A DNA stretch of 47,820 nucleotides from Candidatus Aenigmarchaeota archaeon LH_S6 (GTDB lineage: Archaea; Aenigmatarchaeota; Aenigmatarchaeia; QMZS01), in the NCBI GenBank assembly GCA_023659935.1, contig JAGXOK010000003.1, positions 1 through 47,820 on the forward strand. The letters are read 5' to 3'. Numbering within the stretch: position 1 is the stretch's first letter; the number at the start of each line of letters is the position of its first letter. The notes under the pieces were generated by a model. It saw nothing but the letters and a program-made list of their open reading frames with translations. It was not told the DNA's origin and searched no databases. A program made the position numbers and the translations under genes. This document shows, piece after piece, positions 14,329 through 45,638 of the stretch.

Positions 14329-14330
14329 AA

Positions 14331-18317: not shown

Positions 18318-18554
18318 TTTTATTGTTGATAAGTGGATTACAGTTTATAGGTTTGCACATGGGTGAATTACCCCCAACAAGTTAAGAGGCTTCCTGCTTC
18401 TCCGGGAGGCTAACCTTATTTAAGAGGTGAACTCCTCTCTCCACAAACTTATATTCCGAGTCCTGCCGTAGTGATTTATTTTTGATGTTAATTGAGGCAT
18501 TTAGGTCTCTAGATATTATTAACCCACAATTAGGACATCTATGTGTTCTTATAG
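18318..18554. repeat. Copy 2 of the exact 237-bp direct repeat (part of the longer TnpB remnant)
   Basis: Identical to 18044..18280. It covers tnpB codons up to the stop at 18382-18384 plus the 64-nt downstream flank. Confidence 0.9.
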
Positions 18555-26400: not shown

Positions 26401-29400
26401 GTTTAATTCAATAATTTCAAAGAAATCTGTTAAGTTAACTTCTTCCAAATTTCCAGAGGTATCATTCAGATAAATTTTTGTTATATTATAAGTTCCTAGA
26501 TTATCGGTTTTATTTGTAAATTTCCAAATATCAAATTCTGTATATTGGCTTTCTAAGTTTAAACTTTTATTTGTATAATTACTATTATTAAATATTTCAG
26601 CAAAAACATTTTCTATTTCAACATTATCTTTTGCCTTAACAAAATATTCTACTGTCTCATTTTTGTTGAAACTCTTGTTTATTGAAGTATTTATATCTGA
26701 AATAAAATTATCTAGGTTTGAGCTCCAAGATTTCCCTAAAAGTTCTGGTAGTTTTATATCTTCAACTTTAACTTTGTAACTTTTTGTTGTTGTATAATTT
26801 CCTGTACCCTCTTCTACTCTTATATTTAATGTATAGATCCCTACATCTGATATATTGAAATCAACTTCTGTATAATTCGAGGAATCTGATTCCAAGTCTC
26901 CTAAAGATACACTTTTTTCCTTTATACCTGAACTTAAATTAAATAAAACATTATAAGCCTCTCCTGTATGATTTGTAAGATTTTCATTTTTTATCGTAAA
27001 ATTTAAATAAAATCCTCTACTCTGATTCACAATACAAGTTTTTTCATTGAAAGAATTGCACCTGTTACAGGTTATATTGGTAATATTTAATAGAGGTGTT
27101 TTTATCTTTGTTGTCTCTGAATAATTTTTTCCTAGAAATTCCAGATTCCAGGTTGAATTTAAATCTTGGCTTGGAGTTCCTACACTTATACTTGTATTTA
27201 ACTTTAATCCGGTTATATTCTGACCGACTGTTACGTTTGGGTTACTAAAATTACAATTTACACAATTCCAAGAGGTGAGGTTGCTATAATAATCTGAATC
27301 TGGAATATATAAAGTTAAGTTCTGATTTGAAACTGTTTTGTTGAAATTGAAAGTTAAATTAAAACTTGAATCTCTTCCAGCGTCAATTTCATTATTTTCT
27401 CCAAAATCTATTTCAACTGATGGTTCAACAACTTTAAAACTTAAATTTAATTCGGTTTCATTTAAGTTTCCTAAGGAATCATTTGCAAATACCTTTGTGA
27501 TATTATATAAACCTATTTCTGTTGGAGTTATTGAGGTAGTCCAAGTTCCATTTGTTTGATCTCCACTTTTTAAATCTAGTATTTTTATTTCACTTGTAGA
27601 ACTATTTGTTATGTTAACTGAAACTTTGCTCACCTCTCTTAAATCAGTAATATCTGTAGAAAAATTAACTGAGTCCCCAAGATAAATTCTACTATCATTA
27701 AAATTCTGATCCTCTGATATATTTATTATGCAATCTCTTATCTCTGGAGGTTTCTTATCAATTCTTATCAAAGAAGAGTTTTTTATTGTTTCGTTATTTC
27801 CTGCTTTGTCTAAACTGTAATAGCTAATATATTTTTCACAGATTTCTCCTTCTTCACAAGTTATATTTATTTTAGTAGTGTCATTGTAAGTAACATTAAG
27901 AGTACAAGTTTCAGATTTGTTTGCAATACAATAGTAAGTAGAATTGCAGCCTGAACCTTCATCTGAGCAAGTTAATTCTATTGTTTGGTTTTTTCCATAC
28001 CAAGGTTCACTTACACTTGAGTTATCTGTTGTGTTTGGAACTTGTTTATCAATTCTTATTTCCTCTGAAGTTTTTATATTTTCTAAGTTTCCTAAAGTAT
28101 CATTACTTCTATACCTTATGTAATTTTTACAAACATATCCTTCATTGCAACCAATTTTTATTTTATTTGTATTGTTGTAAATATCTGTTGGCTCACAAGT
28201 TCCTGAGGTATCAACACAGTATGAAGTTGTGTTGCAGCCTGAGCCTGAATCTGAGCAATTTAATTCTATTGTTTGGTTTTTATTTGTCCATTCTGAGGAA
28301 GAATTGTCTGTTGTGTTTGGAGCTTGTTTGTCAATCAAAATTAAATTTGATTTATTTACATTTTCTTGATTTCCTACTGTGTCATTAGAATGATAAAAAA
28401 CTGTTTTGTTACAGGTATTATCTTCTGAACAACTAACTTCTACTGGATTTTGGTAATTTTGATTTGGTGTGCAATTTCCATCTGAGTTATTTATACAATA
28501 CAAAGTTTTATCACATCCTGAACCAGAAGTTCCATCAGATAAATTTGGATCTAAACAAGTTAAATTAACAATTTTATTCTGTTTAAACCAAGTACTGTTC
28601 CAAGTTGAATTTGTACTATCTGTTGTGTTTGGAGCTACTCTATCCACTGAAAACCAATTTAAGTCTGTTCCCTCATTTCCATTGGTCTGATTAGCATAAA
28701 AACTTAGGTTGTATTTCCCATCCGACCAATCAGAGATATTTATAAAATCGGTGAAAGAGAATTCTGCCTGATTTGTAGCAGTTGAGTTATTGGCTGCAGT
28801 ATCTCCTGTTGAATTTGTTATGTTATAAGAGGCAAAAGAAAGATTATTATTAGAGGTTGCAACTGCAGTTAAATTTAAATCAAAACTTTGATTTAGATAA
28901 ATCATTTTAGGATAATAAATAACAACGGAAGGTAAAGAGTTATCAACAGTAAAATTTCTGCTAGTATTATATTTTGGATTCCCTAAAGAATCATTTGCTG
29001 AAACAAGAAAAGTAACATTTTCCCTTTCTGAAATATCTGCTGTGCTATTCCAAGTTGTATCAAAATCCCCAGTTAAATTTCCTTCATCAAAAACTTGGCT
29101 TTTGTTTGTTTTGTTCACAATTTTATACCAAGATTCATTTACTCCAACATCTTCTGTTATTGTTGTTTCTAAACTTACAATTCCAGATTTTGTTTCATTT
29201 TCTTCGGGACTATCTATCGAAATTTCAGGAGGTTTTTTATCAATTTTTATTTGATTTGAGGTTTCTATATCTTCTAAATTTCCAAGAGAATCATTACTTC
29301 TATACCTTATGTAGTTTTTACAAACTTCCCCCTCATTGCAACCAATTTCTATTTTATTTGTACTACTATAAGTTATATTTGGTGTACAAGTTCCAGTTGT

Positions 29401-31893
29401 ATCAACACAGTATGAAGTTGTGTTGCAACCGATTCCATTATCAGAGCAATTTAATTCTATTGTTTGATTATCCTCTGTCCATTCTGAGGAAGAATTGTCT
29501 GTTGTGTTTGGTGGTGTGTTATCAACGGTTATATCAACTCTCTTTGTATTATTAAGGTTTCCCAAAGAATCATTTGCATAAATTGTAAGATTATATTCTC
29601 CATCTGATACAGAAGTTGTATCAAGAGTTCCAAGCCAATAACTTCCACTTTGAGATAAATCAGATGAGTTTGACCAAGTTGAATTACTCAAATTATAATA
29701 AACCTGGTCTACTGTTTGATTATCTGTTATAGTAGTATTTACTAATATATTCTCATTCACAAATCCTGAAGTAGGAGAAGTTATATTCACTTCAGGAGGT
29801 TTCTTATCTATTCTTATCAAAGAAGAGTTTTTTGTTTTTTCGTTATTTCCTGCATTATCAGTACTGTAATAATTAATATATTTCTCACAGATTTCTCCTT
29901 CTTCACAAGTTATATTTACTTTAGTAGTGTTATTGTAAACTTTTGTTGGATTACAAGTTTCAGATTTATTTGCAATACAATAGTAAGTTGTGTTACAACC
30001 TGAGCCAGGAGAGCCATCAGCCAAGTTAGGATCAGAACAACTTAGTTCTACTATTTGATTTTTTCCATACCAAGGTTCATCTACACTGGAGTTGTCTGTT
30101 GTGTTTGGAGGAGTTAAATCTATTGAAAAACCTCTCCCTGAAGAATTAAAGTTTCCTGCCAAATCTTCACAGGTTATATTCCAATTATGAGATCCCTCTA
30201 ATAAATTAGAAGCAGAAAAATTTGTATTTGTATTGTTTGAGACCGAAGAGTTTGTCTGGTTTAAAGTTCTATCTAAATAAAGGGAACAGTTTGCCTCAGG
30301 AGAAAATTCATCTGTAAAATTAAAAACAAAAGTCAAATTTGTTGAGTTCAGCCAGGCATCAACCTCAGGGGAAATTAGATTTATTGTTGAAGAGTTTCTA
30401 TCTAAGATTATCCAATCTGATACATAAGTTTCCTCACCATAATATCCCAAATTTCCTGCTTTATCTCTAATTCTCACATAAATTGTCCTGTTTCCATCTC
30501 CTGAATTACAACCAAAATTTGAATCTGTAATATTAAAATTGGAATAAGTTTTCTGGTAAGGAACCCAATCTGTCCAATTTGTGTTATTGCAGGAAAAAGC
30601 CATATAATCTGTATCTTCCAGATCGGCAGAATTAATCTTTATTTCTGGTTTTTCTTTATCGGTATATCTGTCTCCATCTTCTATTTTTATTGGGGGTTTG
30701 TTAAATCCTGGCTGAATTTTATCAACCACAAAACTATAATTATCAAATTTTCCCCAATATCCATCAGAATCATTACAATGAGTATTAACTATATAAATAC
30801 CAGAATAATCACTGACATTAATACTTCCATTCACCACTTCATTTGAAGAATCAAAATTTCCATCAGTTGCATTCATACCTGTTCCATTTCCTTCCCCTGT
30901 TGAATTAACAAAAAACTCTGCTCCTGTTATGTTTCCAAAAAGTTGTGGATTAATACAGGTTGCATTTACTTTAGGGTTCATCTTTCTAAGACAATAATCA
31001 GCTTCCGGATTACAGGTAATATTTAAATCCTCCCAATTTGTATTATCAAGACTTCTCGCATAAAATTTTGTCCCCTCTGTTTTTGGACTCCCTAAATAAT
31101 TAATTGTCCTGTTCATCACTGTTATCCTCTCATCACTATTATTAATTCCCTCAAAACCAAAGGCAAAATAAGCAACTTTATAACCCTCTGAACCTCCTGT
31201 ATCTGCTTTTATCGCTCCTGGAAGATCATCTTTCTGTAATGTGTACCAATCACCTGTGTCACATTTTACTACTCCAGATTTTTCTGTACTATAAGCAAAT
31301 ACATTTTCGTCTGTTGCTTCCTCACCATTATGCCAAATTAAAGAAGGATACTCTTGATTTTCTGCTCCCCCACTAATATTTATTAATAATCCATCCCCTA
31401 TTTCATCATTACTCTCCCCAATCAAATTGTAATCATCTATATCATCCTTACAATAAATTGCATGTAAATAATCCTCATAAAAATCAGTTGCACCAATATC
31501 ATATCCAATATCCTGCCCTGTTATGAATAATTTACCTCCATTATCTAAGTATTTTTGAAGTTCTTCCTGATCTGTAGAGGTTAAAGTAAAAAAAGGGTCA
31601 CCATAATCGTTTCCAGTAAACCAGATAACAATATCATAGTTTTTCATTCCCCCAATATCTTCATCACAATCCCCTTCTCCATCATAAGCAGGTCCACTAT
31701 CAGTTCCATCTGGTACGGTACAGTTAGTATAATTCAAATCAAGGGAATCCAAGGCTTGAGTATAATAAGGGGCAAGATCAGAATTACTATAATCATAATG
31801 AGCATCTTTAACCAGCAAAATATTCTCCTGTGGACTTGCAAAAACACAGTTTATGGATAACAGCAGAAATAAAACTAAAACTATCCTTTTCAT
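23422..31893 (-). CDS. Giant (2823 aa) surface protein: signal peptide, many Ig-like/beta-sandwich repeats, TM segments and an OB-fold-like C-terminal domain
   Basis: Signal peptide MKRIVLVLFLLLSINCVFASP. Extremely dense in N-x-S/T sequons. Five copies of a PPNTTDNSS...CSD.GSGCN.T.YC...IRIDK(K/Q)PPE module. A TM helix WSLILLVILTLIFSYLITQII near the C-terminus, then a basic coiled region, a second hydrophobic helix, and a terminal VTLKGEVSFIQKTSKEEFIYKIRDETGDIYIFSNKE... segment. Confidence 0.9.
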   Translation of the reverse strand: MKRIVLVLFLLLSINCVFASPQENILLVKDAHYDYSNSDLAPYYTQALDSLDLNYTNCTVPDGTDSGPAYDGEGDCDEDIGGMKNYDIVIWFTGNDYGDPFFTLTSTDQEELQKYLDNGGKLFITGQDIGYDIGATDFYEDYLHAIYCKDDIDDYNLIGESNDEIGDGLLINISGGAENQEYPSLIWHNGEEATDENVFAYSTEKSGVVKCDTGDWYTLQKDDLPGAIKADTGGSEGYKVAYFAFGFEGINNSDERITVMNRTINYLGSPKTEGTKFYARSLDNTNWEDLNITCNPEADYCLRKMNPKVNATCINPQLFGNITGAEFFVNSTGEGNGTGMNATDGNFDSSNEVVNGSINVSDYSGIYIVNTHCNDSDGYWGKFDNYSFVVDKIQPGFNKPPIKIEDGDRYTDKEKPEIKINSADLEDTDYMAFSCNNTNWTDWVPYQKTYSNFNITDSNFGCNSGDGNRTIYVRIRDKAGNLGYYGEETYVSDWIILDRNSSTINLISPEVDAWLNSTNLTFVFNFTDEFSPEANCSLYLDRTLNQTNSSVSNNTNTNFSASNLLEGSHNWNITCEDLAGNFNSSGRGFSIDLTPPNTTDNSSVDEPWYGKNQIVELSCSDPNLADGSPGSGCNTTYYCIANKSETCNPTKVYNNTTKVNITCEEGEICEKYINYYSTDNAGNNEKTKNSSLIRIDKKPPEVNITSPTSGFVNENILVNTTITDNQTVDQVYYNLSNSTWSNSSDLSQSGSYWLGTLDTTSVSDGEYNLTIYANDSLGNLNNTKRVDITVDNTPPNTTDNSSSEWTEDNQTIELNCSDNGIGCNTTSYCVDTTGTCTPNITYSSTNKIEIGCNEGEVCKNYIRYRSNDSLGNLEDIETSNQIKIDKKPPEISIDSPEENETKSGIVSLETTITEDVGVNESWYKIVNKTNKSQVFDEGNLTGDFDTTWNSTADISERENVTFLVSANDSLGNPKYNTSRNFTVDNSLPSVVIYYPKMIYLNQSFDLNLTAVATSNNNLSFASYNITNSTGDTAANNSTATNQAEFSFTDFINISDWSDGKYNLSFYANQTNGNEGTDLNWFSVDRVAPNTTDSTNSTWNSTWFKQNKIVNLTCLDPNLSDGTSGSGCDKTLYCINNSDGNCTPNQNYQNPVEVSCSEDNTCNKTVFYHSNDTVGNQENVNKSNLILIDKQAPNTTDNSSSEWTNKNQTIELNCSDSGSGCNTTSYCVDTSGTCEPTDIYNNTNKIKIGCNEGYVCKNYIRYRSNDTLGNLENIKTSEEIRIDKQVPNTTDNSSVSEPWYGKNQTIELTCSDEGSGCNSTYYCIANKSETCTLNVTYNDTTKINITCEEGEICEKYISYYSLDKAGNNETIKNSSLIRIDKKPPEIRDCIINISEDQNFNDSRIYLGDSVNFSTDITDLREVSKVSVNITNSSTSEIKILDLKSGDQTNGTWTTSITPTEIGLYNITKVFANDSLGNLNETELNLSFKVVEPSVEIDFGENNEIDAGRDSSFNLTFNFNKTVSNQNLTLYIPDSDYYSNLTSWNCVNCNFSNPNVTVGQNITGLKLNTSISVGTPSQDLNSTWNLEFLGKNYSETTKIKTPLLNITNITCNRCNSFNEKTCIVNQSRGFYLNFTIKNENLTNHTGEAYNVLFNLSSGIKEKSVSLGDLESDSSNYTEVDFNISDVGIYTLNIRVEEGTGNYTTTKSYKVKVEDIKLPELLGKSWSSNLDNFISDINTSINKSFNKNETVEYFVKAKDNVEIENVFAEIFNNSNYTNKSLNLESQYTEFDIWKFTNKTDNLGTYNITKIYLNDTSGNLEEVNLTDFFEIIELNLSSSLSNQSIEINKTQIFSANISGNASAISKVEAKISKPDNSIETINFNFENETNNIYLYNGNYSNIDLSGNYSVNTTVILSSKINKTEQANFNVSYGNISINAEDRTLVENTSYDLPIFIVPNKGDLLNISVNISIENEIIINSTNKTSNIGDILWKDNYQGKGVFFPIDSTANGTTTINITAYSPNLNESKSKSINISVIQNDNTPPEINKFNYYNKTNLNNINKFVINTTENETAIKNVSVEVTWPYNTTKNNISATLNPNNLYEINFNGTTENGTYEFKIYSCNLAGKCTNTTTEEFNVTNKYETVTLTYNPYNKGDKIDFNVSVKDVRNLSVEGFNLTLILNKDGENVTLVNNTITNFGSYQIEPEDEPGADKTSAASTDYIIYVNVKKNGNKGEYDESFVVSEEIPTEIIYPETGYYPPNTGVDMNVSVVDMHSEVVEGAAVTAYCPKCTKDYARLTFDSETGRYKGSSIFTAPNENFEIFVYSSSYFGGNLGYTGRMFTTTKTPEGESKTGGETTTGGNGGVPGITNCTCTEWKDKGCGLSNCSATEKYQTRVCNPAGCSAEKQCVYNPVCIPEKDFRISIDQEILEIDQGKTKKDSIKLENIGGAKLSLTISAEKECCDLNYTKSLELEKKETKVLPILVHPNLSQGAGEYSIKFKVESEGVEKEENLRIVVKENPSISYLKSIKNKLPKLEEEIKKYKETGVDVTDLEIKIREIKTLIENSTLSIKTDSLDNLKKQTDEINLKVGYIENKLLTLKIKKFLLENKWSLILLVILTLIFSYLITQIIYPHFRLSREIRSLEEKKQGLVNSRKETEKKYFLRKINEKTFKDILVKTQQTIFEVRGKIRGKKENKESLLKEKLVPTALLIWIISLPVSFFRYLKGLVTKLKHKFGKIKLKDKVNIKRKKLKIKQMISDPKFVNREVTLKGEVSFIQKTSKEEFIYKIRDETGDIYIFSNKELKEGENTITGVLCKSMIGQMYVEIKV
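27746..28041. repeat. Intragenic repeat R5 (pairs with R1 at 29794..30110)
   Basis: Long near-identical stretches seen by eye, e.g. ggaggtttcttatc[a/t]attcttatcaaagaagagtttttt... and ...ccataccaaggttca...gtgtttgga. Boundaries are approximate. Confidence 0.75.
28042..28322. repeat. Intragenic repeat R4 (pairs with R2 at 29228..29512)
   Basis: Shared runs such as atcattacttctataccttatgta[a/g]tttttacaaac and caacacagtatgaagttgtgttgca[g/a]cc...gagcaatttaattctattgtttg. Boundaries are approximate. Confidence 0.7.
29228..29512. repeat. Intragenic repeat R2 (pairs with R4)
   Basis: See 28042..28322. I estimate the pair at roughly four-fifths identical by eye; this was not computed. Confidence 0.7.
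29794..30110. repeat. Intragenic repeat R1 (pairs with R5)
   Basis: Same module as 27746..28041, with about 21 extra nt encoding the PNLADGSPGSG-type insert. Boundaries are approximate. Confidence 0.75.
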
Positions 31894-32125: not shown

Positions 32126-32728
32126 TTAGATTCTAAATCTGCTGAATTCCCTGAGACTTATTTTGTCGCAGATAATACTGTCAATAGCAGTTATCAATAT
32201 TGCACTCAATGAAGCAAAAACAACAGATGTTTTTCTTATGATCCCTCTAACTTTCTGCCAACCTTTATCCATAGCATTCTTTATAATTGCATTGAATTGC
32301 TCAACTAAGCCTTTTATTGGTTAAGTCAATTAAAAAGGCTTAAGCCAAAAATATAAATTGGATAAAACCTATCTTTTCTTCTTTAGTATCATAGGTGTTT
32401 TAAATCTTCTCTCATCTCTCCTTCTATTCTTTGCTATTATTGGTTTTGCTTTAATTTTCCTGCAGGCTTTTCTATTAGTCTCCAAAGCATAACCAGCATC
32501 TGCTAAAATAAGTTCACAAGAAACCAATAACTCTGGTAAGAAAGGGGAATCATGTTTGTTTCCTGTTGTTAGAATTACTTTTAGAGGCAATCCAAGCTGG
32601 TTTACAGAAAGATGTGTCTTAAAACCTTTGAAGGCTCCTCTCGAGTAAAACCAACTTTGGCATCTGCCTTTCTGAGATGGAGCAATCTCTTTGTTTACCG
32701 TTAATCTTACTATATTGGTACCTCTCAC
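32126..32728 (-). pseudogene. IS4/IS5-family DDE transposase remnant (N-terminally truncated, three in-frame stops)
   Basis: The listed ORF 32369..32728 (…GFKTHLSVNQLGLPLKVILTTGNKHDS…ILADAGYALETNRK…) continues in the same frame after TAG (32369), TAA (32330) and TAA (32321) into …GLVEQFNAIIKNAMDKGWQKVRGIIRKTSVVFASLSAILITAI… This is the typical IS5-type C-terminus that carries the catalytic Glu. Confidence 0.7.
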
Positions 32729-32832: not shown

Positions 32833-33447
32833 TTAGTCAGCTACCTGGCTGAGATCAAATACTACCTTGATGACCACGCCATCCCCCTGGGGAGCGTTAC
32901 TATACTTATCAGTAGGATCCAGCGTTACATCGAGCCTCAGTTTTTCCTTCTCATCTGCGGTAAGACCAACCTGGTCAGACAAGTCAGCATTAGCCACCTC
33001 CTTAAGGTCTATGTAGGTATTTCCATCACTATTAGTATCACTAATCCCTGAAAGAAGGTTATTGGCCTCCCAGGTAAGTGTCTCAACCTTAAGAGCTTCA
33101 GCGTACTCAGTATCACTCATATCGTTGCCACTAGCATCCGGAGATTTTGGGTTGTTGCCATCCGCCTCGCCTGTGATGCTGATGCTTAGGTCCATCTGTG
33201 CTCCATCTATGGTTCCAGAATTGAATACAGTTATGGACTGTGCCACATTATCTACTCCAGGTGCCAAATTGGTCAAGCCGCTGACGAAAGCTGCAGAAGT
33301 GTCAGGCGTCAAGTCCAGCGTCCCTGCAGTAAAAGTATTACCTGTTGATTCTTCTGTATCACTGAAAAATGCTCCTGTCATTGCTCCTCCGACTGCCATT
33401 GCAGTTAATCCGATTACTAACACACTCATCAAGATTTTTGTATTCAT
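32833..33447 (-). CDS. TasA/camelysin (peptidase M73-like) family secreted protein with SipW-type signal peptide
   Basis: MNTKILMSVLVIGLTAMAVGGAMTGAFFSDTEESTGNTFTAGTLDL...NLAPGVDNV...FNSGTIDG... parallels B. subtilis TasA (GGGTWAAFNDIKSKDATFASGTLDL...NLKPGD...NNGSL) as I recall it. My hand-counted G+C in two 60-nt samples was 52% and 43%. Confidence 0.75.
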   Translation of the reverse strand: MNTKILMSVLVIGLTAMAVGGAMTGAFFSDTEESTGNTFTAGTLDLTPDTSAAFVSGLTNLAPGVDNVAQSITVFNSGTIDGAQMDLSISITGEADGNNPKSPDASGNDMSDTEYAEALKVETLTWEANNLLSGISDTNSDGNTYIDLKEVANADLSDQVGLTADEKEKLRLDVTLDPTDKYSNAPQGDGVVIKVVFDLSQVAD

Positions 33448-33820: not shown

Positions 33821-34486
33821 ATGGCAGAAATAAAAAGAATCAAAACAGGAATTCCGGGTTTAGACAAATTGATTGAGGGAGGTCTTTTAGAAAATTCTGT
33901 AACTTTAGTAAGTGGTGGAACAGGGACTGGGAAAACAATTCTTTCAATGCAATTCCTAAAGAAATTAGCAGAAAACAAAGAGAAGGTTTTATATATTTCA
34001 ACAGAAGAAAATGAGAAGAGTATAAAAGAAGGTTTTAAAATTTTTGGATGGGATCTGGATAAATTGAAAATAGAGGTTATGAATCTTGGCCCTGATGAGT
34101 TAGAAGAAGAGTGGGAGCCTTTATTATCAAATAAAATAGACAGGGAAAAAGTAAAAAGAGTGGTGATTGATTCAATCAGTCTTACAGGTATTTATTACAG
34201 AGATGAATATAGTACGAGGAAATATATTTACAGACTTATTTCCTCTCTAAAAGAGAGGAATATTACCTGCTTATTAACTTCAGAGGTTCCTGAAAATGAG
34301 AAAAGTCTTAGTAAAATGGGTGTAGAAGAATTCGTTTGTGATGGAGTTATTTTGCTGCAATTCCTTGGAATGGGTGGAAAGTATGAAAGGGGTCTGACAG
34401 TAAGAAAGATGAGATGGACTAATCATACTCAGGAAACACACCCCTACAAAATGGTAAAAGGTAGAGGAGTTGTCTTGAGAAAATAG
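33821..34486 (+). CDS. KaiC-like single-domain RecA-superfamily ATPase (intact Walker A)
   Basis: IKTGIPGLDKLIEGGLLENSVTLVSGGTGTGKTILSMQF..., STEE, Walker B RVVIDSIS, and the C-terminal VRKMRWTNH motif. Confidence 0.85.
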   Translation: MAEIKRIKTGIPGLDKLIEGGLLENSVTLVSGGTGTGKTILSMQFLKKLAENKEKVLYISTEENEKSIKEGFKIFGWDLDKLKIEVMNLGPDELEEEWEPLLSNKIDREKVKRVVIDSISLTGIYYRDEYSTRKYIYRLISSLKERNITCLLTSEVPENEKSLSKMGVEEFVCDGVILLQFLGMGGKYERGLTVRKMRWTNHTQETHPYKMVKGRGVVLRK

Positions 34487-34509
34487 TTTATTTTCTTTTA
34501 GTTTTATTT

Positions 34510-34590
34510 ATGGATAAAGTAAAAACCTATATATCAGGATTGGATGAATTAACTGAAGGTGGTTTAATCAAAAAAATAAAAATTATCTAA
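34510..34590 (+). pseudogene. 5' remnant (26 codons) of a KaiC-like gene
   Basis: [26 protein letters not shown]. The first ~60 nt closely match the start of 38918..39637 (MEKVKTYISGLDELIEGGLIPNS...). It ends 8 nt into the convergent fae gene. Confidence 0.7.
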
Positions 34591-35071
34591 AAGGATGTTT
34601 TGCTGCGTTCTTCTTTTCTAGAACTTCCTTTATTGAAGGTTCATTATTCATTGCTCTTTTTATTGCTAATTTTACTGCTTCATAGTTGTATTCATAGATT
34701 TTAGCCTTATCTTTTGCTTGTGGGTGAATAAATACTGAGCAGACTATCACAAGGTCCTCAACTTTCTTTTTTTCTATTACTCCTTCTTCAACACAGTCCG
34801 CAACTGCCTTGGCAACTGCTGCTTGAGCAGGACCAAAGATTAAGCCTGCTTGTTCCATCCCTTTTATTGTTACTTTTGGCACAATTAAAGTTGAAGGTTT
34901 TGGTTGTAAATTTGGCTCCAAAACTGCAAGCAAAGGAGTATGTCCCTCTTTTGGCTCTGCTAAAGAACTTGCAAATGCTTCCCCAACTGCACCTTCCTTA
35001 CCTCCAATTATCAAGTCTATATGAGCAATCTCATTTCCGGCTCCAATCAAAGCTTCGCCAATTTTCACCAT
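34583..35071 (-). CDS. fae: Formaldehyde-activating enzyme
   Basis: From the ATG at 35071: [27 protein letters not shown]...[17 protein letters not shown]...[12 protein letters not shown]...[28 protein letters not shown]...AAKHPF. This aligns along its whole length with the Methylobacterium Fae sequence as I remember it. Confidence 0.85.
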
Positions 35072-35097
35072 AATTATATTAATATATAACAAGAAGA

Positions 35098-35610
35098 CTA
35101 CCTGTGTTTATATATTTTATAAATTTCATAACATTTTCCTGTTTTTTCATCGTATTTTAAATAACTTGCATGGACATGTCTATCTAAAAGCCTTGATAGA
35201 TTCCTTTCCATAAAATACAAACTAAATCTGCATAAAGGACAGGCTCCTCTTTCTAAAGTTTTTCTGTTAACTGTTAAAATACAATTACTTTCCCTAAAAC
35301 TAATAACCATTTCTGTATATCCTTTTTTCTCTTCTATTGATTCAATTTTAAGTTCACCAACTGTTCCTAGCTTAGCCCATAACTTTTCTAAATGTTTGCC
35401 TGCATCTTCAACTTTATCAAATTTTGGCAAAGTCTTAAAACCAACATCTGATAGTGCATAGCCTATTTCTCTCAAAAAAACTTCTCCTGCTCTACCTGCT
35501 ATTTTTGTACCTGCCTTATCTATTGCTTCCAAAACTGAAACTAAATTAGATTCATAACGCTCAACAATTTTTTCTTTGCTCATCCCCTCTATAAACTTTG
35601 GTACTACCAT
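35098..35610 (-). CDS. V4R (4-vinyl reductase-like) domain protein
   Basis: The C-terminal pattern ...FRESNC...[21 protein letters not shown]...[12 protein letters not shown] resembles the Cys-containing V4R small-molecule-binding domain. Operonic with the Roadblock and GTPase genes. Confidence 0.45.
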
Positions 35611-35615
35611 TTTAT

Positions 35616-35981
35616 CTAACTCAAAAGCCTGCTAATTTTATTACTTGCTTTTTCCATACTAATCAAAACTAAACCTATATTTGCATCTTTGTTTATTAAA
35701 CAAACTAGAAAAGCTTCCTTCCCAGACCCTATAGCAACATATTGTCCATCGGTTGCATCTACTAAAACTTTTTTGAATTTACCAATTTTTAATTCATTTG
35801 TAGATGTCTCTGCAGTTCCAACAATTGCTGCAGCCATCGCAGAAACATTTCTTGCATCAACATCTTGAGATAACTTAGAGATAATAAGTAAACCATCTTT
35901 TCTGATAATTAAAGAGCCTAAGATATCACCAACATCTCGCAATTCTTTAAGTATATCTTCCAACTCTTTTTTGCTTACCAT
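35616..35981 (-). CDS. Roadblock/LC7 (MglB-like) domain protein
   Basis: 121 aa. LKELRDVGDILGSLIIRKDGLLIIS...NVSAMAAAIVGTAETSTNEL.IGKFKKVLVDATDGQYVAIGSGKEAFLVCL. Starts 3 nt downstream of the GTPase gene. Confidence 0.8.
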   Translation of the reverse strand: MVSKKELEDILKELRDVGDILGSLIIRKDGLLIISKLSQDVDARNVSAMAAAIVGTAETSTNELKIGKFKKVLVDATDGQYVAIGSGKEAFLVCLINKDANIGLVLISMEKASNKISRLLS

Positions 35982-35984
35982 AAT

Positions 35985-37115
35985 TTATACTTTAAATATT
36001 TTATTTATAAGAACTTTAAAGCCTTTTTCCAAACTTTCAGATTCTAAAGCATTTACGGGTAAGATATCTGCATAGCCAATTCTTTTCTTGATTTCCTCTA
36101 TTTCTAAATGGTTTGGTATGTTTTGCTTATTTGCAAAAACAACAAAAAGAAGTTTTTCTCCCTCAACTTTCTTTAACATCTCTTTTGCTCTACCGAAAGT
36201 CTCAGGAGCTGTTGAATCTATAACTAGAATAATACCCCAAATATCTTTAGATAATACCTTTAAAATCCAGTCAAATCTTTCTTGACCAGGAGTTCCGAAA
36301 ATATCACAAATAATCCCTTTTCTTTCAATATATCCATGGTCTAACGCAACTGTTGTAGATACTCTATCAACAGAAATAGATCCCTCTGAAAGATTTTTTA
36401 CTGTTGTTGATTTTCCAGCATGATATGGGCCAGTAACAAGAATTTTTGGAATATATAAATTAACTCCAGTGAGAGTTATCCAAAAGAAAATCTTTGGACT
36501 AGCCCCAACAAAAAAATAATCCATCCACAAATATTTTTTCTCAACAGAACCAAGTTCTATCACTAAATCAAAACAAGTTTTTATTTTTTCAATTTTCTCT
36601 TTTTCATAACCCCAATCTGTCAACAAAAAAAAGGCTGTTGACCCTCCATGAGATTTTTTTAAATTATTTATAAAATCAACAGTTTCATCAATCCTATAAC
36701 CCATTATACTTTCCAAAGAATCAAAAATATCTATCTTGAAACCTTTTGTTTCTTTTATTGCTTTATCCCACAACTCACTTATTTTCGGTAAAATATTTGT
36801 TCCGTCAATTAGTTTCTCCTTTAAAAAATATTTTGTTTTCTGTTCTTTTCCAAGAGTTGAGGAAATGCAATCAACATATTTTATATTTTTTGTTTCCCAT
36901 CCGTGTTCTTCCAAATTTTTTTCTATTTGCTCTGGTATTTTAGAAGTTGTTAAATAAATTCCTTTATCTTCTTCGGAAATTCTTGTTGAAAAAATATGTT
37001 GGGCAAAACTTGATTTGTCAACTAGAGGACTTGCAAGTAATAGAACAGAACTTTTGTCATCAATACCACCACCTAAGATTTCATTTAGTTTCTCTATTCC
37101 TGTATTTAATTTCAT
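35985..37115 (-). CDS. Fusion protein: degenerate KaiC-like domain + small Ras-superfamily GTPase (MglA/COG2229-like)
   Basis: N-terminal half: TGIEKLNEILGGGIDDKSSVLLLASPLVDKSSF (KaiC-like fold, Walker A lost). C-terminal half: G1 GPYHAGKST, G3 DIFGTPGQERF, G4 ANKQN (Asn where the canonical NKxD has Asp). Confidence 0.75.
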   Translation of the reverse strand: MKLNTGIEKLNEILGGGIDDKSSVLLLASPLVDKSSFAQHIFSTRISEEDKGIYLTTSKIPEQIEKNLEEHGWETKNIKYVDCISSTLGKEQKTKYFLKEKLIDGTNILPKISELWDKAIKETKGFKIDIFDSLESIMGYRIDETVDFINNLKKSHGGSTAFFLLTDWGYEKEKIEKIKTCFDLVIELGSVEKKYLWMDYFFVGASPKIFFWITLTGVNLYIPKILVTGPYHAGKSTTVKNLSEGSISVDRVSTTVALDHGYIERKGIICDIFGTPGQERFDWILKVLSKDIWGIILVIDSTAPETFGRAKEMLKKVEGEKLLFVVFANKQNIPNHLEIEEIKKRIGYADILPVNALESESLEKGFKVLINKIFKV

Positions 37116-37170
37116 AATATATAAAAGTTTTTATTTAAAGGGTTACTTTATTATTAGGGGTTATAATTTT

Positions 37171-37653
37171 ATGCTGCTGGAGAATAAGTTCATAACATTT
37201 GGTCCTGGAAAGTTTGATTCGACAAGAAAAAAGGTTGTGAGGGAATTTATAAAGGAAGGAGATTGTATCTATATAACAGTAAATAAACCAAAAGATATTT
37301 TGGTCAAAGAATTTAGGAATAAAGTTGATGTTAAAAAGATTTTTTTCATGGATTTAGTTTCTAAAACAAATCTATTTTCTGAAACCTCTACCTGTATCTT
37401 TTTGCCTTTCCCAGAAGATTTGCTTGGTCTGGCAATTAAGGTAATGAAAAAAGTTGAAGATAAGAAATTTAAAACAATTATCTTAGATTCTTTTTCAACT
37501 CTTCTATTGTATAATGGTGTTGATAAAACAATAAAATTTATCCATTATCTGGTAAATAAATTAAATGTCCGCAACATTCCTCTCATTGTTATTTCTTTAG
37601 AAATTAACAGAGAAATTAAATCTCAACTATTCCAATTTTTTAAATATGTTTAA
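37171..37653 (+). CDS. Degenerate KaiC-like domain protein (Walker A not intact)
   Basis: The track start at 37015 overlaps the opposite-strand gene, so I use the ATG at 37171. FGPGKFDSTRK replaces the P-loop; a Walker-B-like TIILDSFSTLL is retained. The stop overlaps the start of 37646 by 8 nt. Confidence 0.5.
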   Translation: MLLENKFITFGPGKFDSTRKKVVREFIKEGDCIYITVNKPKDILVKEFRNKVDVKKIFFMDLVSKTNLFSETSTCIFLPFPEDLLGLAIKVMKKVEDKKFKTIILDSFSTLLLYNGVDKTIKFIHYLVNKLNVRNIPLIVISLEINREIKSQLFQFFKYV

Positions 37654-38344
37654 AAAAGTATTCACGGGGATAAAAGGGTTTGATTCAATTGTTGGAGGGG
37701 GTTTCCCTATAAGTAGTATGGTTTTAGTTACTGGCCCAGCAGGAGTTGGAAAAACTACTTTTGGCATACAATTTCTTGTCAAAGGAGCTGAACTTGGGGA
37801 GCCTGGGCTTTATATATCAATGGAGGAAGATGTTGAGAAATTACATATTTTTGAATATTTATTTGGTTTTAATATCAGTAAGTTTGAAAATGAAAAAAAA
37901 ATAAAAATTGTTAGATTTGAATTAATGGAGTGGAAAGAATTATATTCAATAAATAGACTGGAAAAAATGATTGATAAATTGATAAATAAGATAAATGCTA
38001 AGAGAGTTGTTTTAGATTCTAGTTCTATCTTAGGGTATTATCTAAAAAATGAATTTAATTTAAGAAGGTTTCTTTTTAGTCTATCAAAAAAATTTGAAAA
38101 GCATGGGATAACTTCAATTATTATCTCTGATATTCCATATAATTCAAACAAACTTTCTACATTTGGTGTTGAAGAATTTGTTTCAGATGGAATAATTTTG
38201 CTTTCTTATAGCAAGATAAAAACTTATTTCAACAGACGTTTAGAAGTAAAAAAGCTAAGGTTTACAGATTTTTCTAATTTTAAGGTCCCATTTCAAATTG
38301 GTAGGGAAGGTATAGAAGTTTTTCCAACTCAAGAGATTTTTTAA
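37646..38344 (+). CDS. KaiC-like single-domain ATPase (intact Walker A)
   Basis: FTGIKGFDSIVGGGFPISSMVLVTGPAGVGKTTFGIQFL, SMEE, Walker B RVVLDSSS, and LEVKKLRFTD. Confidence 0.85.
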   Translation: MFKKVFTGIKGFDSIVGGGFPISSMVLVTGPAGVGKTTFGIQFLVKGAELGEPGLYISMEEDVEKLHIFEYLFGFNISKFENEKKIKIVRFELMEWKELYSINRLEKMIDKLINKINAKRVVLDSSSILGYYLKNEFNLRRFLFSLSKKFEKHGITSIIISDIPYNSNKLSTFGVEEFVSDGIILLSYSKIKTYFNRRLEVKKLRFTDFSNFKVPFQIGREGIEVFPTQEIF

Positions 38345-38907
38345 ATTTCTTTTTCAAATTTTTCTGTCATTATTTTTGTTTTTTCATTCATTTCTATCAC
38401 TATATCAAAAAATCTTTTAAATTTATCTGCCAACATTTTATTAATTTCGATTACACATGCAACTCTACATTTACTTATCTCTCTCATAAAAACCGCAGAA
38501 AATCTAACTGCTAAATCTGGAGGTATATAATCGAGCAACCTGCTATAGCCTTCTATATAGCATCTTTTTATTGAATTTTCTCTTTTAATAACTTTGAGAG
38601 CATGAATCAAAATACTATTTAAATCAGAAGGATTCACAATTATAATATTATTTGTTGGTTGTGCTTTTCCTGTAACATCTATAAATATTATTTTCCCTTC
38701 CATATACCTTTTTTTAAGTTCTTCTGTTATTTTATTTGCGGGATTCCTAAAAGTTATATATAAAATAGCCCCTCTATCTTTTATTCCTTCTGCAATGAAC
38801 CGAAAAGGAAAACTCTCTACTTGTTCCATAGAGCCTGTTAATAAAACCGTATTCCCTTCCTCTATCTTAATTTCTTTATCAATTTTTTCTATTCCTGTTT
38901 TTATCAT
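38341..38907 (-). CDS. Degenerate KaiC-like domain protein (Walker A lost)
   Basis: MIKTGIEKIDKEIKIEEGNTVLLTGSMEQVESFPFRFIAEG... has a KaiC-like layout without the GxxGxGK(T/S) P-loop. Confidence 0.5.
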   Translation of the reverse strand: MIKTGIEKIDKEIKIEEGNTVLLTGSMEQVESFPFRFIAEGIKDRGAILYITFRNPANKITEELKKRYMEGKIIFIDVTGKAQPTNNIIIVNPSDLNSILIHALKVIKRENSIKRCYIEGYSRLLDYIPPDLAVRFSAVFMREISKCRVACVIEINKMLADKFKRFFDIVIEMNEKTKIMTEKFEKEI

Positions 38908-38917
38908 AAATATATAT

Positions 38918-39637
38918 ATGGAGAAAGTAAAGACTTATATATCAGGATTGGATGAACTAATCGAAGGAGGCCTAATTCCAAATTCAACAACTCTAATTAC
39001 CGGAAAAACAGGAACGGGTAAATCAAGTTTCTGTGTTTCTTTTATCTATTTTGGAGCAATGAGTGGTGAACCTGGAATTTATGTTTTAACAGAGGAAACA
39101 GTCCAAAATATTAAAGAAGAAACCAAAAATGTTTTTGGTTTTAGGTTGGAAAAGTTAGAGGAACAAAATTTATTGAAAATCCTTGCTATTAAACCAGAAT
39201 TCCCTACCCAAGTATCAGGAATAGAAGAATCAAAGATTCTAAAAATATATGTCTATGATCTAGTAGACCAAATTTCAGAATTAGTAAAAGAAATTAATGC
39301 AAAAAGAGTGGTTTTTGATTCTACTTCAATACTTGAATTATTTGTTAAGGATAAGTATCTTGGGAGAATTGCAATTGCTTATTTAATAAATTCTCTAAAA
39401 GAAATGGGGGTTACTTCTCTTCTGGTTGGGACAATTCCAGAAAGTGGTGAAGATTTATCAACCTTAGGCATTATAGAATTTCTTGTTGATGGGATTATAA
39501 AAGTTGAGTTTGTTCCAATTGCAGAAGAGTTCAAGAGAACCTTATCAATTAGAAAGATGAGACAGATTAACCACTCAACTTTCATTCATCCTTTTGAAAT
39601 TACAGAAGAGGGAATAAAAATCCTAAAAATTACCTAA
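38918..39637 (+). CDS. KaiC-like single-domain ATPase (intact Walker A)
   Basis: The ATG at 38918 is used because the track start at 38795 runs antisense through 38341..38907. YISGLDELIEGGLIPNSTTLITGKTGTGKSSFCVSF, TEE, Walker B RVVFDSTS, and LSIRKMRQINH. Confidence 0.85.
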   Translation: MEKVKTYISGLDELIEGGLIPNSTTLITGKTGTGKSSFCVSFIYFGAMSGEPGIYVLTEETVQNIKEETKNVFGFRLEKLEEQNLLKILAIKPEFPTQVSGIEESKILKIYVYDLVDQISELVKEINAKRVVFDSTSILELFVKDKYLGRIAIAYLINSLKEMGVTSLLVGTIPESGEDLSTLGIIEFLVDGIIKVEFVPIAEEFKRTLSIRKMRQINHSTFIHPFEITEEGIKILKIT

Positions 39638-39683: not shown

Positions 39684-40115
39684 ATGGCAAAAGGACAAGT
39701 TTCGTTAGAATACTTGATGACATATGGTATAGCAATAGCGATTATAGTAATAGCAGTAGGAGCATTGTATTCAATGGGTGCTTTTACTCCAGGTAGTTCA
39801 ACAAGCAATCCACCTTGCACACCTTGCTTCAGTGATTTTGCATATAATGAACATACCTATGAGGAACCTTCTTTAAAGTTAGAAGTTAAAAATGGTCCAA
39901 GTGGGATAAATAACTTAAGTTGTACAGCATCTAGTGATTCAGCATCTGCTAATTGTAGTGTTAGTTCTGAAACAGTAAATCCAAATGCAGTATTTACTGT
40001 TAGTATACCAGGGGATGGAACAGCAGATGTAAACACAACAATAAGTTTCATAAAGGAAGGGAGTGAGTTAAATGTAACCAGAACAGAAAGTATATCAAAA
40101 GACTACTTCTCCTAA
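39684..40115 (+). CDS. Archaeal type IV pilin, Epd-type class III signal peptide (candidate major pilin)
   Basis: MAKG/QVSLEYLMTYGIAIAIIVIAVGALYS matches the KGQxSxEYL class III signal peptide signature. 143 aa with a Ser/Thr-rich globular part. Confidence 0.8.
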   Translation: MAKGQVSLEYLMTYGIAIAIIVIAVGALYSMGAFTPGSSTSNPPCTPCFSDFAYNEHTYEEPSLKLEVKNGPSGINNLSCTASSDSASANCSVSSETVNPNAVFTVSIPGDGTADVNTTISFIKEGSELNVTRTESISKDYFS

Positions 40116-40143
40116 TAATTTTATTTTTTTAAGTATTCTTCTT

Positions 40144-41358
40144 CTACTCAAAGTAATTGTTATAAGAACTATCATCTATTTTAAAATATTTGAATGAAGA
40201 ACTATTTGTAGAACTTTCGTTGAGACCTTTTGATTCTCCAAGGATTCCATTTATATATTTGTAGGCAATATTTGTGGCATTTTTATCTATGTCCAAATCG
40301 AGTCCTAAAAGATGGTTTTTGTCAACAAAGGTTTCTAAACCTACATTTCCCCCTGTGCAATAAGAGCAGTAAGTTTTTCCTTCTAATCTATCAAAAAAAC
40401 TCGGTCCTGAGGTAGAATTTATATACCAAGAATTTTCTACATGCTTAATAAAGTTTGTGATATTCCATACTTTTCCTTTTTCTCCAGAGAGCAGAATTTC
40501 TGAGTTTATATAATTAGTTAAATTTGAGATAGAAGAAACCTTTAAATAAGAGATATTAACTGAAGTTTCATTATTTTCAAAAATTGTTCCACAGAATTTA
40601 TTTACTCCTATTGTTACTGTTTTATTTACAAAAATTTTTTTCTCAGATTCATCAGCATTTATATTATCTGTTAATTCACCATAACACCATGCCTTGCCAG
40701 TACCACTAACAATAAGTTTAGTAAAATTATCTATGTATTTACTTTTCTTTATAATCCTTGAACCCCTTCCTTCTGTTATGTTTATTAAATATAGAGGGTC
40801 CTCAAAATCATTGATAGAAATTCTTTCTGAAATTTTTATTTTTCTTGAAAACCTTGCAACTCCTGTCTTTGAAATGTTTACTTCAGAACTTGAATTGAAT
40901 AAAATATGAAAAGAATCATTAATAGTTATAGAAATTTTATCCGGATCTAGCTCAATACTCACATTATATTTTCTTGGCTCACCTGTATAAAAAATCTCCA
41001 AATCACTAATTGCTTTATCCAAGGTATTATTTTTCATAAAGGGTACCTCCTCTCCTCTCAAAGTTCCATTTAATATTAATTCCTTTAAATTTTCTTCTGT
41101 TTTCCCACTCTCAAAAAAACTTTCATTTTCTATTATATAATTCAAAGAAGAAACTATTGCCCTCTTTGTTGTTACATCAGCAAGAATGTGCAAACTTCTA
41201 CTAATACTATTATAAGCATAATCCATATCCTCAAGTTGTTGTTTCATGGAAAGTTGCTCCCTCTCAAAGGAAATTGTTTCCCTCTGCAAAATTAATATTG
41301 AAAACACAATTACAACTACTAAAATTGAAATCAAAGAAAACAAAACCCCTTTTTTCAT
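40144..41358 (-). CDS. Pilin-like (class III signal peptide-like) secreted protein, 404 aa
   Basis: MKKG/VLFSLISILVVVIVFSILIL. Its start overlaps the end of 41355..41870 by 4 nt. Confidence 0.55.
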   Translation of the reverse strand: MKKGVLFSLISILVVVIVFSILILQRETISFEREQLSMKQQLEDMDYAYNSISRSLHILADVTTKRAIVSSLNYIIENESFFESGKTEENLKELILNGTLRGEEVPFMKNNTLDKAISDLEIFYTGEPRKYNVSIELDPDKISITINDSFHILFNSSSEVNISKTGVARFSRKIKISERISINDFEDPLYLINITEGRGSRIIKKSKYIDNFTKLIVSGTGKAWCYGELTDNINADESEKKIFVNKTVTIGVNKFCGTIFENNETSVNISYLKVSSISNLTNYINSEILLSGEKGKVWNITNFIKHVENSWYINSTSGPSFFDRLEGKTYCSYCTGGNVGLETFVDKNHLLGLDLDIDKNATNIAYKYINGILGESKGLNESSTNSSSFKYFKIDDSSYNNYFE

Positions 41359-41870
41359 TTTTGTTTTAAATACTTTAAACTAACCAAAAATATAGCAATG
41401 ATAATTATCGCAAGAATAATTAACTCTTTATTTGCTGTTTTCCTGTAGGGTCTTATATTTTTGATAATATCATTATTTACTAAATCTGATAAATTATCTA
41501 CTACTACAAACCTATCTTCTGTTGTGTTATTGGTTTCTACTATCACCCTTACTTTGTCCTCTTCAAACTCTAAATTGTTTTCCTCTGCAAATTTTGATTT
41601 ATTTTCTGCTCTTATTAAGCCACTCAAGTTATCACCAATTCTATCACTTCCTCCACTACTTCTCTCTTCTCTATTCTTAATTGGTATAGAAAATATACCA
41701 TCTATAGTTGAGTAAGGAATTTCATTGGAATTTTCATCTAAAAATTTACTAACTTCAATTGTTAGGGAAGTGTTTTCCCCTTCATCACCTACCACTCTGA
41801 AAAAAATTTCTGCCAGCAAAAAATCTCCTGTAAAACTTTCATTTAAATCAAGGTTGATTTTAGTTTTCAT
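41355..41870 (-). CDS. C-terminally anchored protein lacking a signal peptide (weak cohesin-like N-terminal segment); possibly the detached C-terminus of 41875..44499
   Basis: No N-terminal hydrophobic segment. GDFLLAEIFFRVVGDEGENTSLTIEV...IDGIFSI. C-terminus ELIILAIIIIAIFLVSLKYLKQK (TM helix plus basic tail). The ATG lies 4 nt after the upstream stop, and that stop directly follows an A7 run. Confidence 0.5.
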   Translation of the reverse strand: MKTKINLDLNESFTGDFLLAEIFFRVVGDEGENTSLTIEVSKFLDENSNEIPYSTIDGIFSIPIKNREERSSGGSDRIGDNLSGLIRAENKSKFAEENNLEFEEDKVRVIVETNNTTEDRFVVVDNLSDLVNNDIIKNIRPYRKTANKELIILAIIIIAIFLVSLKYLKQK

Positions 41871-41874
41871 AATA

Positions 41875-44974: not shown

Positions 44975-45002
44975 AATTAAATTATTTCTTACAACAAAAG
45001 GA

Positions 45003-45593: not shown

Positions 45594-45638
45594 AATATAT
45601 TAATAAAGATTATAAAGGAGTTTTCTATTTTTTATCAA

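Follow-up and report, generated by a model that had tools for sequence, protein, structure and literature searches.

What kind of protein arises when a KaiC-type domain and a small GTPase are encoded in a single open reading frame (ORF), and what becomes of that GTPase when the Asp of its G4 motif is an Asn? Both questions are raised by one gene in contig JAGXOK010000003.1 of Candidatus Aenigmarchaeota archaeon LH_S6 (assembly GCA_023659935.1), of which we analysed positions 1 to 47,820; this stretch is referred to below as the window. The gene is located on the minus strand at 35985..37115, and runs from an ATG start to a stop codon at 35985-35987, encoding a protein of 376 amino acids (aa). 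Sequence analysis and structure prediction showed a two-domain architecture, in which an N-terminal KaiC domain has lost its ATPase motifs and a C-terminal small GTPase keeps the motifs G1 and G2, as well as G3 in the form GTPGQ.

A covalent fusion of an inactivated KaiC-like domain to a Ras-superfamily GTPase had been claimed in an earlier note, made from the sequence alone, and Pfam, the fold model and the full-length homologues agreed on it. The inactivated KaiC/RecA-fold domain spans aa 1-215 (36471..37115, minus strand); the Pfam KaiC family PF06745 matched aa 4-191 (E-value (E) 2.1e-10, 40.8 bits against a cut-off of 26.6), and a profile of the family matched the KaiC-like ATPase PH0284 of Pyrococcus at E 1.8e-24. 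The small GTPase domain, Arf/SRbeta-like and of archaeal MglA type, spans aa 222-376 (35988..36452, minus strand) and was recognised by Pfam, NCBIfam and PDB matches, with Arf (PF00025, E 9.6e-12) and Ras (E 4e-09) both over their curated cut-offs at aa 224-373 and the NCBIfam model small_GTP (TIGR00231) also exceeding its cut-off. The structure prediction that the earlier note had proposed gave an AlphaFold2 model, built with 72 homologues in the alignment, with a predicted local distance difference test score (pLDDT) of 89.2 and a predicted template modelling (TM) score of 0.81. The pLDDT fell below 50 solely at residues 250-255, within switch I, as is expected of a mobile switch. In a Foldseek search, the N-terminal half of the model matched the RecA-superfamily ATPase PH0284 (2dr3, E 5.5e-17, target TM 0.80) and also cyanobacterial KaiC, which removes the concern that this half might have no KaiC-like fold. 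Since full-length homologues of the protein were found with E down to 2e-142, these domain and family matches are not due to chance.

The join between the two domains is itself conserved. The junction residues F211, G217, Y221, P223 and K224 were invariant in 72 sequences and, in the AlphaFold2 model, a single strand (217-228) continues from the KaiC domain into beta-1 of the GTPase; the junction thus looks conserved and is probably rigid, and nothing points to a flexible linker. Among 5.8 billion proteins searched there were 1123 relatives, of which the best 120 were, with few exceptions, full-length proteins of 370-415 aa. When the family profile was run against 1.84 billion cluster representatives at 50% identity, 182 of them reached the threshold of E<=1e-30, about 94 being full-length fusions. 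In a scan of one genome per species of the Genome Taxonomy Database (GTDB), at least 587 species genomes encoded a relative, and the best 80 examined all carried full-length fusions. Among these 80 were members of the DPANN (Aenigmatarchaeota, Micrarchaeota, Nanohaloarchaea and Woesearchaeota), Altiarchaeota, methanogens and their relatives (Methanobacteriaceae, Methanosarcinales, the anaerobic methanotrophic archaea (ANME) of group ANME-2, Methanoperedens, Methanocellales and Methanomicrobiales), and further Archaeoglobaceae, Hydrothermarchaeota, Thermoplasmatota and Alkanophaga. A mis-join of two genes, or a missed stop codon or frameshift between them, is therefore ruled out by the fused form in hundreds of genomes and by the invariant junction, and the fusion is a genuine and ancient architecture.

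We define this archaeal iKaiC-GTPase fusion family by a length of about 380 aa, a P-loop-less KaiC domain, the invariant junction, the motifs TT..LDHG and GTPGQERF and an adjacent Roadblock gene, all of which are present in the window protein and its locus. The names that databases give to its members do not go beyond 'GTP-binding protein', 'small GTP-binding protein' and 'ATPase domain-containing protein'. The earlier note knew of no account of the architecture, and no description of a KaiC, small GTPase and Roadblock combination was found in the searchable literature, a search that did not extend to the 2017 survey of KaiC hubs; the fusion may already be listed in arCOG-based work, and with at least 587 species genomes it is by no means rare.

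In the N-terminal domain the Walker A motif is degenerate and reads ASPLVDKSS (aa 28-36; 37008..37034, minus strand) instead of GxxxxGK[ST]. In the alignments, ASPLVDKS lies under the Walker A sequence GGPGTGKT of PH0284, and the same site aligns with the Walker A loops that the window's own intact KaiC paralogues, three in number, carry there (GGTGTGKT, GPAGVGKT and GKTGTGKS). This, with the PF06745 match, bears out the earlier reading of the first ~215 aa as KaiC-like without a P-loop. Moreover, Ser58-Lys59 (36939..36944, minus strand) stands at the position of the KaiC catalytic Glu-Glu, as YLTTSK of the fusion aligns with YISTEE, YISMEE and YVLTEE of the three neighbouring paralogues, TSK lying over TEE or MEE; we take the TEE/MEE of the paralogues to be the KaiC catalytic Glu pair after strand 2 (E77/E78 of KaiC CI). 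K59 and P61 were conserved in at least 90% of the family (72 homologues), as was D132, the Walker B Asp that is kept (FDS) where DIFDSLES aligns with VVIDSISL. The consensus GxxxxGK[ST] was found in the N-terminal domain at none of 85 related loci, mostly from GTDB species genomes, nor in the fusion of the window; the usual family reading at this site is PG[VI][ED]xxxF, and in the branch of Aenigmatarchaeota and Nanohaloarchaea it is xDxxVDK[SA]. With neither a Walker A motif nor the catalytic Glu pair, the domain is, judged from its sequence, a KaiC fold without phosphate binding and without catalysis.

In the GTPase domain, the G1/P-loop GPYHAGKST (aa 229-237; 36405..36431, minus strand) is intact, with G229, G234 and K235 invariant in the 72 homologues. 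Switch I/G2, placed by the family alignment at aa 248-262 (36330..36374, minus strand), reads SVDRVSTTVALDHGY and contains the invariant residues T254, T255, D259, H260 and G261, the last three forming a DHG motif, along with the mostly conserved Arg251. The G3 motif GTPGQERF (aa 274-281; 36273..36296, minus strand) was identical in 92 of 120 homologues and invariant at G274, T275, P276, G277 and Q278; it keeps the catalytic Gln, the canonical Asp of DxxGQ being replaced by Gly family-wide, as in MglA-type proteins. Across the family, G1, the TT pair and GTPGQERF are nearly invariant.

In the search with the family profile, the best PDB matches of the G domain were Arf/Arl proteins (E ~1e-15), and a solved MglA was not among the top 60. 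On this basis bacterial MglA proper was rejected as the class of the domain, which by sequence appears nearest to Arf/Arl/SRbeta and to the archaeal 'Group 4 MglA' type. The assignment to the small Ras-superfamily GTPases stands with G1 and the Pfam Arf and Ras matches, and the affinity of the domain is to be moved from bacterial MglA towards Arf/Arl/SRbeta and archaeal Group 4.

Some further features of the two domains were observed along the family. Arg251 (codon 36363-36365), conserved in most members, lies three residues before the G2 Thr (DR.GTT), a spacing that we presume to equal that of the catalytic Arg in G-alpha subunits; by this analogy it could be an intrinsic arginine finger. Homologues from Methanobacteriaceae, Methanomicrobiales and ANME-2/Methanosarcinales (e.g., L017, L021, L024, L033 and L038) carry an insertion of about five residues in switch I (SVDRKALGAFPTTIAMDIGH). 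A conserved C-terminal extension of ~70 aa (L..L.WR.L..ADW), which may be a DNA-binding or dimerisation module, is shared by P0241, P0245 and P0252, stand-alone relatives of the G domain. Furthermore, a sub-family comprising P0210, P0221 and P0234, in which one cluster member is named Candidatus Hecatellales archaeon, shows the reciprocal inactivation: its KaiC domain retains the Walker A motif GDxGSGKS, an acidic pair (EE/DE) at the catalytic Glu position and Walker B, and in its G domain G1 and NKQD are kept, but G3 and the Thr pair of switch I have been lost.

The G4 motif of the window protein reads NKQN (aa 329-332; 36120..36131, minus strand), and direct reading of the DNA gave AAC at 36120-36122 for N332, one transition away from GAC (Asp). 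In a phmmer alignment, 'vfankqnipn' of the fusion paired residue for residue with 'VFANKQDLPN' of Arf1, and the same columns of the family alignment read NKQD in most members, which makes the assignment of G4 secure and supports the earlier placement of NKQN at the canonical position. A G4 motif shifted elsewhere with a normal Asp was considered and rejected, as there is no alternative Asp near the G4 of the window protein and the second NKxD of Nanohaloarchaeal homologues is not conserved. An Asp missed through sequencing error was likewise ruled out: an identical fusion protein is present in an independent assembly of run SRR14170883, two strain variants of 97-98% identity keep N332 while adjacent and other residues vary, and NKQN is unchanged across three strain variants. 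The closest relatives (50-60% identity, annotated as Aenigmatarchaeota) all have NKQD, and the Asn is therefore lineage-specific and fixed, an exception in the family.

The search for the same fusion and for NKxN in other genomes, suggested in the earlier note, found both, and it showed that NKxN is not a family trait. The norm is NKQD: of 210 full-length fusions, 152 have Asp at the last position of G4, 49 have Asn and nine have another residue. Asn forms occur in at least five separated clades, with ~11 changes by parsimony on a rough neighbour-joining tree of the 210 fusions, and comprise a 31-member Nanohaloarchaeal clade (NFQN), an NKAN/NKSN group, two further NKQN groups (one formed by P0144 and P0167, the other by P0146), a pair with NKVN/NKCN and the window fusion. 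When diversity was normalised by counting cluster representatives, Asn was present in 10 of 94, and it was present at 9 of the 85 related loci. Both NKAD and NKAN were found among Altiarchaeota and Woesearchaeota proteins with similar G5 motifs. Stand-alone relatives of the G domain had Asp in all 22 cases, a small sample; as Asn was seen only in fused forms, this suggests that the tethered context tolerates the change from Asp to Asn. In the Nanohaloarchaeal homologues (e.g., L003, L016 and L027; P0071-P0117) Lys and Asp of G4 are both replaced, giving NFQN with G1 and G3 intact, and a shifted second NK[DE]D-like string follows ('NFQNKDD'), which is not conserved (NKEG, NKDE and NMDD variants).

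Engineered counterparts of this substitution exist. Ypt1-D124N is reported to bind neither GDP nor GTP and to have its specificity switched to xanthine, and it exerts its effect in the nucleotide-free form, which ties up its exchange factor (PMC2120555); a Ran mutant of the same type shows altered nucleotide specificity (PMC2120845). The expectation that engineered Asp-to-Asn changes shift specificity to xanthine is thus borne out by the reports on both proteins. XTP (xanthosine triphosphate) is not known to be an abundant cellular nucleotide and, for this reason, weak guanine-nucleotide binding is the more conservative prediction for a natural Asn, rather than a working XTPase; a shift to xanthine nucleotides would be just one of several possible consequences.

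The fusion gene is followed, after a gap of 3 nt from its stop codon, by a Roadblock/LC7 (MglB-like) gene of 121 aa (35616..35981, minus strand; PF03259, E 1.2e-12), as had been noted from the sequence. This pairing is almost the rule in the family: at 68 of the 85 loci the fusion has a same-strand Roadblock neighbour within 200 nt, and at 74 within 3 kb; several of the loci without a nearby Roadblock end at contig ends. The nearest structures to the Roadblock protein of the window are archaeal 9jue (1.5e-17) and 7f8m, followed by Streptomyces CvnB5 (3leq, 1.4e-5), LAMTOR2 and, weakly, MglB (0.05). In the homologues with the switch I insertion mentioned above, the Roadblock gene is found upstream of the fusion, not downstream, and adjoins one or two KaiC-like genes with GPPK[VT]GKS loops.

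KaiC-like genes also recur near the fusion. One lies within 1.5 kb at 45 of the 85 loci, with an intact Walker A motif at 35 of the 85 and often overlapping the fusion gene. The region 33821-39637 of the window is rich in them, three intact and two degenerate paralogues surrounding the fusion gene. The intact ones are all on the plus strand and match PF06745: 33821..34486 (Walker A GGTGTGKT, E 1e-56), 37646..38344 (GPAGVGKT, E 5.1e-60), a candidate partner of the dead KaiC domain, and 38918..39637 (GKTGTGKS, E 3.8e-57). Divergent from the fusion gene is a truncated or degenerate KaiC-like gene at 37165..37653 (plus strand) without a P-loop, whose matches to DUF835 (E 1.4e-05) and KaiC (E 2.8e-04) are both under the cut-off and which is a gene of 160 aa in the independent assembly. 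The second degenerate paralogue, placed by paralogue alignment, encodes 188 aa at 38341..38907 (minus strand) with neither P-loop nor Pfam match; it has 25% identity to the N-terminal domain of the fusion and reads SMEQ-VES at the Walker A site.

On the minus strand the gene order is fusion, Roadblock, a gene of 170 aa and a gene for formaldehyde-activating enzyme (Fae), with gaps of 3, 5 and 5 nt. The Fae gene (34583..35092, minus strand; E 1.2e-74) seems to share a transcript with the genes for the GTPase and the Roadblock protein, in a genome that looks to be of DPANN type. The 170-aa gene (35098..35610, minus strand) is an orphan: it had no Pfam match even at E 10 and no homologues beyond its own cluster, and it was not conserved beside the fusion in five homologue loci inspected in detail. 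A single-sequence AlphaFold2 model of its product reached a pLDDT of 67 (medium confidence), and Foldseek returned, at E ~1e-3 and TM ~0.5, YslB, BcsD, the V4R sensors DmpR/MopR/PoxR, TRAPPC3/Bet3 and H-NOX. The protein has a Cys cluster (C134, C137 and C159), and V4R domains bind zinc through a Cys cluster of such kind; based on the model, it is possibly a V4R/Bet3(TRAPPC3)-like ligand-binding fold.

Elsewhere in the window, which has a GC content of ~30%, type-IV-pilus-like machinery was observed at 6656-8484 and 12730-17880 (both minus strand) and at 39684-46610. The window holds two T2SSF (TadC/PilC-like) genes and many pilin-like ORFs with class-III-signal-peptide-like N-termini (KGQ, KGG or RGG, then a hydrophobic helix), one of them with a PKD domain; archaeal type-IV-pilus loci are reported to include KaiC ATPases and Roadblock (arCOG02603) proteins (PMC4858521). 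An ORF of 2823 aa with a signal-peptide-like N-terminus (23422-31893, minus strand) adjoins a gene for a camelysin/TasA-like (Peptidase_M73) secreted protein (32833-33447, minus strand). Mobile-element remnants comprise a TnpB/OrfB_IS605-type gene of 218 aa (18382-19038, minus strand) and a DDE transposase fragment of 119 aa (32369-32728, minus strand). In the region 1-5596 the ORF list contains no ORF of at least 90 aa and the one minus-strand frame checked was closed; the region is most likely one very long ORF running past the left end of the window.

What, then, would such a protein do? We hold it moderately probable that it works as a GTPase switch which is anchored to a signalling hub of KaiC type and controlled by Roadblock, and in which the Asn weakens the binding of guanine nucleotides. 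Rings of KaiC-like ATPases are hexameric, and the dead KaiC domain would serve as adaptor, bringing the GTPase onto or into such a ring and coupling the ATPase or autophosphorylation state of the hub to the GTP/GDP switch. A Roadblock dimer would set the nucleotide state of the GTPase as GTPase-activating protein (GAP), possibly also as guanine-nucleotide exchange factor (GEF), in the way that MglB is GAP and GEF for MglA and that CvnB/MfpD are thought to act in actinobacterial G-protein systems. It would position the GTPase's own Gln278, and perhaps Arg251, for catalysis. The Asn would remove the carboxylate that reads guanine N1-H and N2-H2, making GDP/GTP binding much weaker, so that in this lineage the switch would exchange fast, need no GEF or be largely free of nucleotide. 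That the Asn abolishes function appears less likely from the sequences, because the other motifs are intact and Asn variants persist in whole clades. As output in this organism, the surrounding type-IV-pilus-like surface-structure genes may be considered; this is a weak step, since the five homologue loci inspected in detail lie amid housekeeping genes and the pilus link is specific to the window.

Further points weigh against this tethered-switch reading. About half of the loci, most of those of Methanosarcinales included, have no nearby KaiC gene, and hetero-oligomerisation with KaiC-like ATPases is suggested solely by gene neighbourhood. The analogy with MglA/MglB is indirect, as solved MglA is more distant from the G domain in sequence than Arf/Arl are. 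Nearly neutral drift could account for the substitution, because an AT-rich genome (~30% GC) favours G-to-A changes. For the family as a whole, the mechanism is a prediction from sequences and models.

Drift, taken as a rival reading, would make the Asn a tolerated, neutral or slightly deleterious product of AT mutation pressure, in a protein that behaves like its NKQD relatives. A single G-to-A transition in a genome of ~30% GC, the uniform NKQD of the closest relatives at 50-60% identity and the D and N forms side by side in other lineages all speak for it, but in well-studied GTPases the change is not silent, as Ypt1-D124N indicates (PMC2120555), and Asn appears only in fused forms and in 0 of the 22 stand-alone relatives, a small sample hinting that the fusion context permits it, which would in itself say something about function. 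On balance we regard drift as rather unlikely. The domain might instead be a pseudoGTPase, a non-cycling, permanently nucleotide-free platform for Roadblock and KaiC partners that would, for example, sequester a regulator. Nucleotide-free Ypt1-D124N reportedly works in just this manner on its exchange factor (PMC2120555), and the decay of GTPase motifs in P0193, P0163 and P0147, like the absence of switch I and G3 in P0210, P0221 and P0234, indicates that non-cycling forms evolve in the family. However, G1, the G2 Thr pair, the G3 Gln and DHG are all intact in the fusion and its strain variants, where loss would be expected if a nucleotide were never bound, and a pseudoGTPase is accordingly an unlikely description of the window protein.

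A changed specificity would turn the NKxN and NFQN members into natural switches dependent on xanthine, inosine or adenine nucleotides, not GTPases. Engineered Asp-to-Asn forms of Ypt1 and Ran are reported to turn to xanthine nucleotides (PMC2120555, PMC2120845). The Asn is held across the NFQN clade of 31 sequences with G1 and G3 intact, which argues for a retained nucleotide-dependent function. On the other side, XTP is not known to be abundant in cells, the backbone of G5 reads guanine O6 as well and the conserved Ala356 of G5 is kept, D and N forms with similar G5 occur in the same lineages (NKAD, NKAN), which fits tolerance better than a re-engineered pocket, and no co-varying pocket changes were found; we consider changed specificity quite improbable. 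Bolder, and a long shot in our estimation, is the idea that the Asn members (NKQN, NKAN, NKSN and NFQN) no longer use guanine nucleotides at all, being retuned to XTP, ITP (inosine triphosphate) or ATP, or regulated nucleotide-free, with a turnover gated by the KaiC-type ring through the fused dead KaiC domain; if true, archaea would possess a 'G-protein-coupled KaiC' device for signalling whose base specificity has been re-tuned repeatedly in nature. That a sequencing or assembly error made the Asn or joined two genes is a negligible prospect, even for a source that is a metagenome-type contig, given the identical protein in the independent assembly of SRR14170883, the NKQN of two strain variants, and the invariant junction and fused architecture in hundreds of genomes.

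The significance of the tethered switch lies in what it brings together. KaiC-like ATPases have been proposed as archaeal signalling hubs, and pairs of a small GTPase with Roadblock are seen as precursors of the way eukaryotes regulate GTPases; the fusion family unites both systems in one polypeptide across hundreds of archaeal species, methanogens and ANME included, and so offers a way to test how an ATPase hub might be linked to a GTP switch. The recurrent change from Asp to Asn provides a natural set of variants showing how far a tethered G domain can relax base recognition. If the Asn is neutral, the finding reduces to the solid annotation of an uncharacterised family. Nothing in the findings contradicts current understanding.

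Among known systems, MglA/MglB of Myxococcus xanthus and Thermus thermophilus resembles the fusion in a G3 motif without the canonical Asp and with PGQ kept, and in the adjacent Roadblock gene. Myxococcus MglA controls type-IV-pilus motility, and pilus-like genes surround the locus in the window. Unlike the single-domain MglA proteins of 150-240 aa, the fusion has 376 aa and two domains, the N-terminal one a dead KaiC; its G4 reads NKQN, and it lacks the insertion that bacterial types have between G1 and G2. Closer is the archaeal 'Group 4 MglA', which Wuichet and Sogaard-Andersen (2014) place nearest to Arf/Sar/SRbeta, in 56% of the surveyed genomes of methanogenic Euryarchaeota (PMC4316618); this affinity matches the Arf/Arl best matches of the fusion's G domain. 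Sequences of more than 240 aa were dropped from that survey (PMC4316618), which would have placed the iKaiC-GTPase fusion family outside its reach.

In actinobacterial G-protein systems, an ATP-dependent autokinase is coupled to a small GTPase of MglA type (CvnD/MfpB) together with its Roadblock protein (CvnB/MfpD), which is likely a GAP. The fusion locus shares with these conservons (CvnA-D; mycobacterial Mfp) the operon of GTPase and Roadblock, and the Roadblock protein of the window matches CvnB5 (3leq, E 1.4e-5). Stand-alone relatives of the G domain carry the signature TTVAMDFG...LFGTPGQERF, which is presumably shared with CvnD-type GTPases. Among the genes near the locus that were scanned with Pfam, neither a CvnA histidine kinase nor the GEF CvnC/DUF742 was present; the system differs in being archaeal and in that KaiC-like ATPases would stand in for the kinase, linked covalently via the dead KaiC domain.

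A likeness to eukaryotic systems, in which Rab/Arf GTPases are combined with longin/Roadblock and Bet3 (TRAPP) or Ragulator components, is seen in the Arf-like G domain, the Roadblock protein and the possible V4R/Bet3 fold within one operon. Such a trio of G domain, Roadblock and Bet3/V4R has been discussed for Asgard archaea; here, by difference, the V4R/Bet3 assignment is weak (pLDDT 67, TM ~0.5). The N-terminal domain, for its part, is matched by the archaeal iKaiC/KaiC hubs, with a KaiC fold without ATPase motifs fused to a signalling domain amid active KaiC paralogues. PMC5847659 credits Makarova, Galperin and Koonin (2017, mBio 8:e01959-17) with the concept of inactivated KaiC domains fused to signalling modules and with their name, iKaiC. 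Set against these systems, the fusion is an MglA/Roadblock-type module combined with a putative iKaiC adaptor.

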